Shown one piece after another: positions 6,804 through 6,845 of a DNA stretch of 64,000 nucleotides. The position numbers and the translations under genes are program-made. The stretch covers positions 31,444,304 through 31,508,303 of the forward strand of contig NC_092671.1 of the NCBI RefSeq assembly GCF_964355755.1, read 5' to 3'. The first letter of the stretch is position 1. Every line of letters begins with the position of its first letter. The notes beneath the pieces are model-generated. The model did no database searches. It worked only from the letters and a program-made list of their open reading frames with translations, and had not been told where the DNA came from. The stretch is from Antedon mediterranea (lineage: Eukaryota; Animalia; Echinodermata).

Positions 6804-6845
<42 letters not shown>
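6804..6845 (+). other. 42-bp copy of the 28S R2 target upstream half in IGS1
   Basis: AGCGCGGGTAAACGGCGGGAGTAACTATGACTCTCTTAAGGT is identical to 28S, then diverges (TAGAAAT instead of AGCCAAAT). Confidence 0.95.

Follow-up and report, generated by a model that had tools for sequence, protein, structure and literature searches.

A truncated copy of the R2 target in the ribosomal spacers of Antedon mediterranea: a likely R2 scar and possible dead-end target

The ribosomal array and its spacers

The window analysed here, meaning the whole stretch of 64,000 nucleotides from Antedon mediterranea, is a tandem animal 45S rDNA array with six complete 28S genes and six intergenic spacers (IGS) of 3241–3408 bp; its 18S appears to be of echinoderm type. 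The order of parts is the same in every unit: a unique 3' stretch, an array of 9-bp repeats, a 42-bp copy of a piece of the 28S gene, a T run, and subrepeats. The 42-bp copy begins 240–276 bp past the Rfam 28S end. The sixth spacer (IGS6) diverges from the others mainly in its 5-bp repeats. The elements on either side of the copy in the first spacer are as follows.

6654..6752, + strand: 9-bp tandem array, 5' of the IGS1 copy; 8–12 copies among the spacers
6861..6888, + strand: T run of 28 T (27 in IGS6), beginning 16 bp past the copy

The subrepeats of IGS1 at 7202, 7531, 7815, 8109, 8479 and 8795 show 43/46 matches to a promoter-proximal 46-mer at 9300, and these six near-copies are typical of enhancer-like promoter duplications. 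Two length differences occur among the transcribed regions: the 5' ETS of unit 1 is without ~200 bp that unit 2 has (200–240 compared with 9520–9740), and unit 5 has an 18S gene 13 bp shorter than those of the other units.

A 42-bp copy of the R2 target in every spacer

The 42-bp copy corresponds to 28S positions -41..+1 relative to the nick made by the R2 retrotransposon, in the numbering of PMC10499050. A sequence search of the window located the exact 42-mer in all six spacers, as claimed in the initial annotation, whose numbering was likewise confirmed. The same exact 42-mer is present in the four uninterrupted 28S genes (at 5379, 14869, 24351 and 47858), and no 12-base seed of it was found on the reverse strand.

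5379..5420, + strand: source, the R2 target in the unit-1 28S gene, nick between 5419 and 5420; 1425 bp upstream of the IGS1 copy
6804..6845, + strand: IGS1 copy, exact match, with RUM (-34..-22) and RASIN (-6..+1) at native spacing (motif positions from PMC10499050)
16294..16335, + strand: IGS2 copy, exact match
25785..25826, + strand: IGS3 copy, exact match
39811..39852, + strand: IGS4 copy, exact match, in the unit whose 28S gene bears a full-length R2
49283..49324, + strand: IGS5 copy, exact match
59280..59321, + strand: IGS6 copy, exact match, in the divergent spacer of the unit whose 28S gene bears a short insert

The chance expectation of a 42-base match is ~2e-18. When IGS1 was compared with the 18S–28S region of unit 1, the copy was the only significant match, all others being 12-mers with E ~1. 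The copy had been described as a half-site whose homology to the gene stops at the nick. The upstream target is indeed what was copied and the right end does lie at +1, yet three further bases match 28S +1..+3 after a one-base shift, and "half-site" understates a segment that includes both target motifs of R2Bm (RUM and RASIN) at their native spacing.

The copy is unlikely to be an assembly artefact. In four sequencing runs of one sample, one of which may be the source of the window itself, 0.89–0.98 of the words from this part of the spacer are present. In a contig of another study with the same organism label the upstream flank (6745–6800) is identical at 41 of 41 bases; three further runs gave no contig over this flank, nor did organisms B, C and D, an absence that a filter can produce. 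Marine, aquatic and invertebrate metagenomes are among the data sets that contain words of the spacer. The organisms designated B, C and D contain 0.55, 0.39 and 0.25, respectively, of the sampled words of 6530–7300, and RNA runs contain 0.06–0.08.

The uniformity of the copy among the six units can be explained by homogenisation. In an alignment of the six spacers the copy lies inside an invariant run of 180 columns (6681–6860), the 51 and 15 columns that flank it likewise show no variation, and other spacer runs of 178–218 columns are invariant as well. With 7 of 672 columns variable in the unique spacer, the probability of no change in 42 columns is 0.64. We therefore reject invariance as a sign of function, and the persistence of the copy in the divergent IGS6, which had been offered as support for a function, carries no weight. 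The count of insertions noted earlier was borne out, with none in the six spacer copies compared with two in the six 28S sites (units 4 and 6), but the difference (P = 0.45 by Fisher's exact test) does not qualify as evidence.

The resident R2 element and the unit-6 insert

Two of the 28S genes are interrupted at the R2 site, one by an intact R2 element and the other by a short insert without an open reading frame.

33889..38417, + strand: full-length A-clade R2 in the unit-4 28S gene, 4.5 kb
34184..38095, + strand: stop-to-stop frame of this R2, 1303 aa, with three zinc fingers, Myb, RT and RLE
33924..34064, + strand: predicted HDV-like ribozyme of this R2, P1 33924–33930 pairing 7/7 with 34016–34022
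57345..57922, + strand: ORF-less insert at the unit-6 R2 site, 578 bp, two diverged ~290-bp tandem units

The assignment of the resident R2 to the A clade follows from its three N-terminal zinc fingers together with Myb, RT and RLE domains and from its position at the 28S R2 site. A protein search returned 27 relatives, and the protein is nearer to R2Tg (9dou, E 1.3e-194) than to R2Bm (8gh6, E 7.2e-86). In alignment it retains the Gln/Arg pair of ZnF1 that in R2Tg reads positions -21/-20 (PMC12222951), and its RT6a residues are His-Lys where R2Tg has Lys922-Asp923. Two substitutions upstream of the unit-4 junction change 28S -15/-14, though the open reading frame of the element is intact.

The Rfam model drz-agam-1 matches the predicted ribozyme with 17.7 bits, under its gathering score, and our ribozyme descriptor, which matches the resident R2, also matches 2 of 200 shuffled sequences. 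When the descriptor was confined to a G at -46..+5 it had no match in the resident R2, and the widened version pointed to an internal site. The predicted cleavage at 33924 falls inside the element, so the RNA of the resident R2 would not carry an upstream 28S piece as its leader. The 35 bases between the 28S gene and the predicted ribozyme start (33889–33923) resemble, in the Rfam alignment, a decayed duplicate of downstream 28S sequence.

The two units of the unit-6 insert are ~75% alike (over 97 bp), and each begins at 28S -36 with a degenerate copy of the upstream target that has decayed by 4–5 substitutions and 2–5 gaps. The 3' end of the insert is R2-like (87% over 62 bp), and a descriptor search of the insert found no HDV-like fold. 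In its location at the R2 site, its lack of an ORF and its R2-like 3' end the insert is similar to the non-autonomous R2 SIDE elements (PMC3414825; described in PMC3774820). The spacer copy is unlike these elements, having neither a ribozyme nor an R2 3' end, and is therefore no SIDE. R2-type machinery in this array thus does make copies of the upstream target. The R2-borne copies, at the unit-4 junction as in the unit-6 insert, are decayed whereas the spacer copy has no differences from the 28S gene, which indicates that the spacer copy is either young or constrained.

Predicted behaviour of the copy as an R2 target

The target requirements of R2 proteins have been characterised in several systems. 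The target motifs of R2Bm are those given above, with T(+1) essential and nicking left intact by alteration of +6..+37 (PMC10499050). The N-terminal domains of A-clade proteins bind the upstream half only, with footprints at -30 and -15, and ZF3-2 requires -40..-21 (PMC11204384); ZnF2 contacts lie close to the nick (PMC12180492). R2Tg nicks target DNA without 3' homology, but target-primed reverse transcription (TPRT) strictly requires such homology, and a match of 4–5 nt is found at its off-target insertions (PMC12222951).

The spacer copy, identical to the gene over -41..+1, includes both RUM and the A-clade binding region of -40..-21, and RASIN with its T(+1) stands at the native distance from RUM. 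Homology to the 3' tail of R2 RNA amounts to one base in register, or three after a one-base slip, and falls short of the 4–5 nt seen with R2Tg. The copy accordingly holds, at native spacing, every upstream determinant named in the passages of PMC10499050, PMC11204384 and PMC12222951 on target recognition; it differs from the substrates described there as a natural, array-wide version without downstream homology, those assays having used other proteins and substrates.

From this biochemistry, the retained upstream determinants and the missing downstream homology we predict that the resident R2 binds the copy and probably nicks it, without insertion. ZnF1, Myb and RT6a would bind -40..-20 of the copy, and the endonuclease would nick it since T(+1) is retained, although nicking in spite of the changed +2..+5 is an extrapolation from R2Bm to the resident protein. 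The 28S-derived 3' tail of the R2 RNA would then find too few matching bases downstream, priming would stall, and the copy would act as a dead-end target.

Origin of the copy

The right end of the copy lies within one base of the nick, and a random piece from the 6229-bp transcribed region would end ≤2 bp from the nick with a probability of only ~0.001–0.002. This implicates R2 in the origin of the copy, in its retention, or in both. The connection with R2 drawn in the initial annotation is thereby upheld, the more so as the array contains an intact A-clade R2. The junctions of the copy carry short repeats.

6803..6858, + strand: junction scar, with a 3-bp direct repeat (6803–6805 / 6846–6848) and a 7-bp direct repeat (6840–6846 / 6852–6858)

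Reconstruction of the empty site gives a match to 28S +1..+3 and to 3 of 4 RASIN positions. This site is without the upstream R2 motif (1 of 7 positions at -25..-19 and 2 of 13 at RUM), which leaves off-target nicking of the spacer by R2 poorly supported. The pattern would sooner fit capture of an R2-cut end through microhomology than a clean off-target event caused by R2; we infer both routes.

The R2 machinery is known to make duplicates of 13–28 nt from upstream 28S sequence, and the ribozymes involved cleave at positions -9 to -36 (PMC3774820). The duplications at R2 5' junctions described there are, like the spacer copy, upstream 28S pieces that end at or near the nick, and they are made by R2 integration. 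They are mostly 13–28 nt long, located at the insertion site and joined to R2 sequence, whereas the spacer copy is 1.4 kb away, is followed by neither R2 sequence nor a ribozyme, and starts at -41, beyond the cleavage range. We rejected the possibility that an R2 or SIDE element left the copy as a relic of its 5' end: apart from the 28S piece, IGS1 has no match to R2 or to the short insert, and the ribozyme descriptor had no match in 6760–7260, whereas the resident R2 scored. Taken more broadly, the relic of an ancient insertion that the initial annotation listed as an alternative is at least as good as a sponge for R2 and fits the junction repeats.

R2 itself has likely left the copy behind as a scar. 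Our preferred interpretation, to which we give somewhat less than an even chance, is that this R2-made scar was fixed by concerted evolution and serves only incidentally as a dead-end target for R2. It builds on what is directly established: an intact A-clade R2 in the array, the copy with its limits and its junction repeats, and the missing downstream homology. R2 cleavage of a 28S gene would have set the right end of the piece, which would then have been joined by way of short microhomologies during repair that used the cut gene, 1.4 kb upstream, as template, or alternatively by R2 reverse transcription of rRNA primed on the three matching bases. Once one spacer had captured the piece, unequal exchange and gene conversion would likely have fixed it in every unit. 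This scar account requires no host selection. Against it stand the lack of decay in the copy, the exact cores of the L002 paralogues described below, and the consideration that a nickable insert should, we infer, be lost via repair from units without the copy, not fixed.

A similar arrangement in a 5S spacer

A collection of metagenomes was scanned once for the core of the target with flanks other than 28S sequence. The scan yielded two records, L001 and L002, which represent a single locus of another organism (98.7% identity over 1063 bp). L002 terminates in a 5S rRNA gene, and its spacer is rich in repeats.

L002, 232–303 and 1484–1573, both strands: inverted paralogous copies of the R2 upstream site, exact over -40..+2

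The 28S-derived bases further upstream of the core are altered in these paralogues, and 13 of 114 aligned flank positions differ between the two, or 17 when gaps are counted, which amounts to 11–15%. At this rate the probability of no difference in 42 positions is 0.006 (0.001 with gaps) when both lineages are counted, and 0.085 (0.039 with gaps) when only the copy that was not selected by the search pattern is considered. Downstream homology extends over two bases. The host repeat fits the RASIN consensus in all six of its copies. The HDV-like descriptor had one match in L002, away from the copies, which we took as chance. The search pattern demanded an exact core with limits at about -44..-36 and -2..+4, and the agreement of these limits with those of the Antedon copy is partly built in. 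The exact cores are suggestive in that they would raise the odds of constraint; they come from one locus, and repeated conversion from 28S genes would look alike.

Possible roles of the copy

A selected role, whether as a decoy for R2 or as a safe break site, is possible when the two are taken together, though we consider it somewhat improbable. As a host decoy, the function proposed in the initial annotation, the copy would supply one trap per unit that holds the R2 ribonucleoprotein unproductively; insertions into the 28S genes would be roughly halved. The limits of the copy suit this purpose, with all upstream determinants and the essential T(+1) present and the priming homology gone from +2. 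R2Tg does not exchange the target DNA that it binds first, and unlabelled target added beforehand strongly inhibits it (PMC12222951). The exactness of the core in the two diverged paralogues of the 5S spacer points the same way, but they are one locus pair, found with a pattern that required an exact core and changed flanks. Within the window there is no sign of constraint, as the probability given above indicates, and two of six 28S genes are still interrupted. We regard the decoy as unlikely on balance, if worth serious consideration.

In the second selected role, nicking of the spacer by R2 would initiate unequal exchange, and rDNA copy number would be restored while the 28S genes are spared. 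The copy is predicted to be nicked and not primed, as this role would demand, and whether R2 breaks without insertion can expand rDNA has been posed as an open question (PMC10266012). Such a benefit has been shown in Drosophila only and is perhaps specific to that group (PMC13580325), and for R2Tg to nick the second strand efficiently, TPRT on full templates is needed (PMC12222951). The probability of a safe break site is consequently small in our estimation.

A productive alternative landing site, which would draw insertions off the gene, has a precedent. The IGS of D. ananassae contains a 22-bp copy of the R1 target that held one R1A and seven R1B insertions, and PMC2718515, in the passage on this copy, proposes no function for it. 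There as here, a host that bears an R element has in its rDNA spacer a short 28S piece with the target of that element, and the Antedon copy thus represents a variant of a known phenomenon and not a new kind. The two cases differ in the element (R1 and not R2) and in length (22 bp compared with 42 bp). The D. ananassae copy took eight insertions, whereas the present one stops at +1 and has none in six. The present copy occurs in 6/6 spacers, and the same passage does not state that the R1 copy is present in all D. ananassae units. For R2, the three bases that match after a one-base slip would be compatible with use of the copy, as an A-clade protein has been reported to nick one base off the canonical site (PMC11204384). 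The absence of inserts from the six copies speaks against such use, though not significantly, as does the strict need of R2Tg for 3' homology. The suggestion that the copy diverts insertions outside the gene is, with downstream homology missing, less likely for the resident A-clade element, although the R1 precedent does just that, and we judge a landing site to be quite improbable.

We hold it very improbable that the copy serves the host in a way that has nothing to do with R2, whether as a Myb-type Pol I terminator, which the initial annotation had also considered, or as a helix 69 RNA mimic in the 3' ETS. Its location past the 28S end, adjoining the T run and preceding promoter-like subrepeats, would suit a terminator, and eight bases of the copy are repeated at 6640 (shuffle frequency 0.067). 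Against this, the identical sequence stands in the same orientation inside all the 28S genes, which the polymerase has to transcribe in full; a site of this kind would leave the end at the nick unexplained; and the core occurs on both strands of the 5S spacer in L002. The layout is also opposite to that of TTF-I and Reb1 terminators, whose T-rich release element comes before the site of the protein: here the T run follows the copy.

Our survey of the literature, which covered mainly the main texts of open-access papers, found no R2-target copy in an IGS and no decoy role. The portions of the main text of PMC10946416, PMC13580325, PMC13188248 and PMC5035012 that bear on the subject describe no R2-target copy in a spacer.

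These results lead us to speculate that a truncated R2 target has repeatedly arisen, and been retained, in the ribosomal spacers of animals, as in the 45S IGS of the present array and the 5S spacer of L001/L002. Such a target would be a DNA trap that R2 binds and nicks without inserting, and possibly a harmless break point for the recovery of rDNA copy number. We consider this generalisation doubtful. If selected, the copy would defend the host by means of target DNA, and not of small RNA or protein, against the best-studied site-specific retrotransposon. It would also, if the prediction is true, be a natural substrate that parts R2 nicking from insertion. Even if the copy is a neutral scar, about half of the R2-binding sites in the array are predicted to be unproductive, and the copy indicates which edits of the target would stop A-clade R2 proteins, a type now employed in gene insertion.

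Other features of the sequence around the copy

Several further resemblances were noted near the IGS1 copy. The 8-base word at 6640–6647, directly before the 9-bp array, is common to 28S -37..-30; a second degenerate target near 6640 was rejected as not significant at the shuffle frequency given above. A pyrimidine tract with an acceptor-like end and a donor-like end surround the copy at 6781–6850, as for a 38-nt exon, the relevance of which is unlikely in a Pol I region. On the minus strand of 6861–6916, hexamers that resemble polyadenylation signals are followed by the 28-A run beside the copy, and the whole looks like a retroposed tail, which may be chance in AT-rich DNA. In reverse complement the 5-bp spacer repeat (6917–9166) reads as 28S +1..+5 of the R2 site, and it runs counter to the copy, a likeness seen after the fact and probably due to chance.
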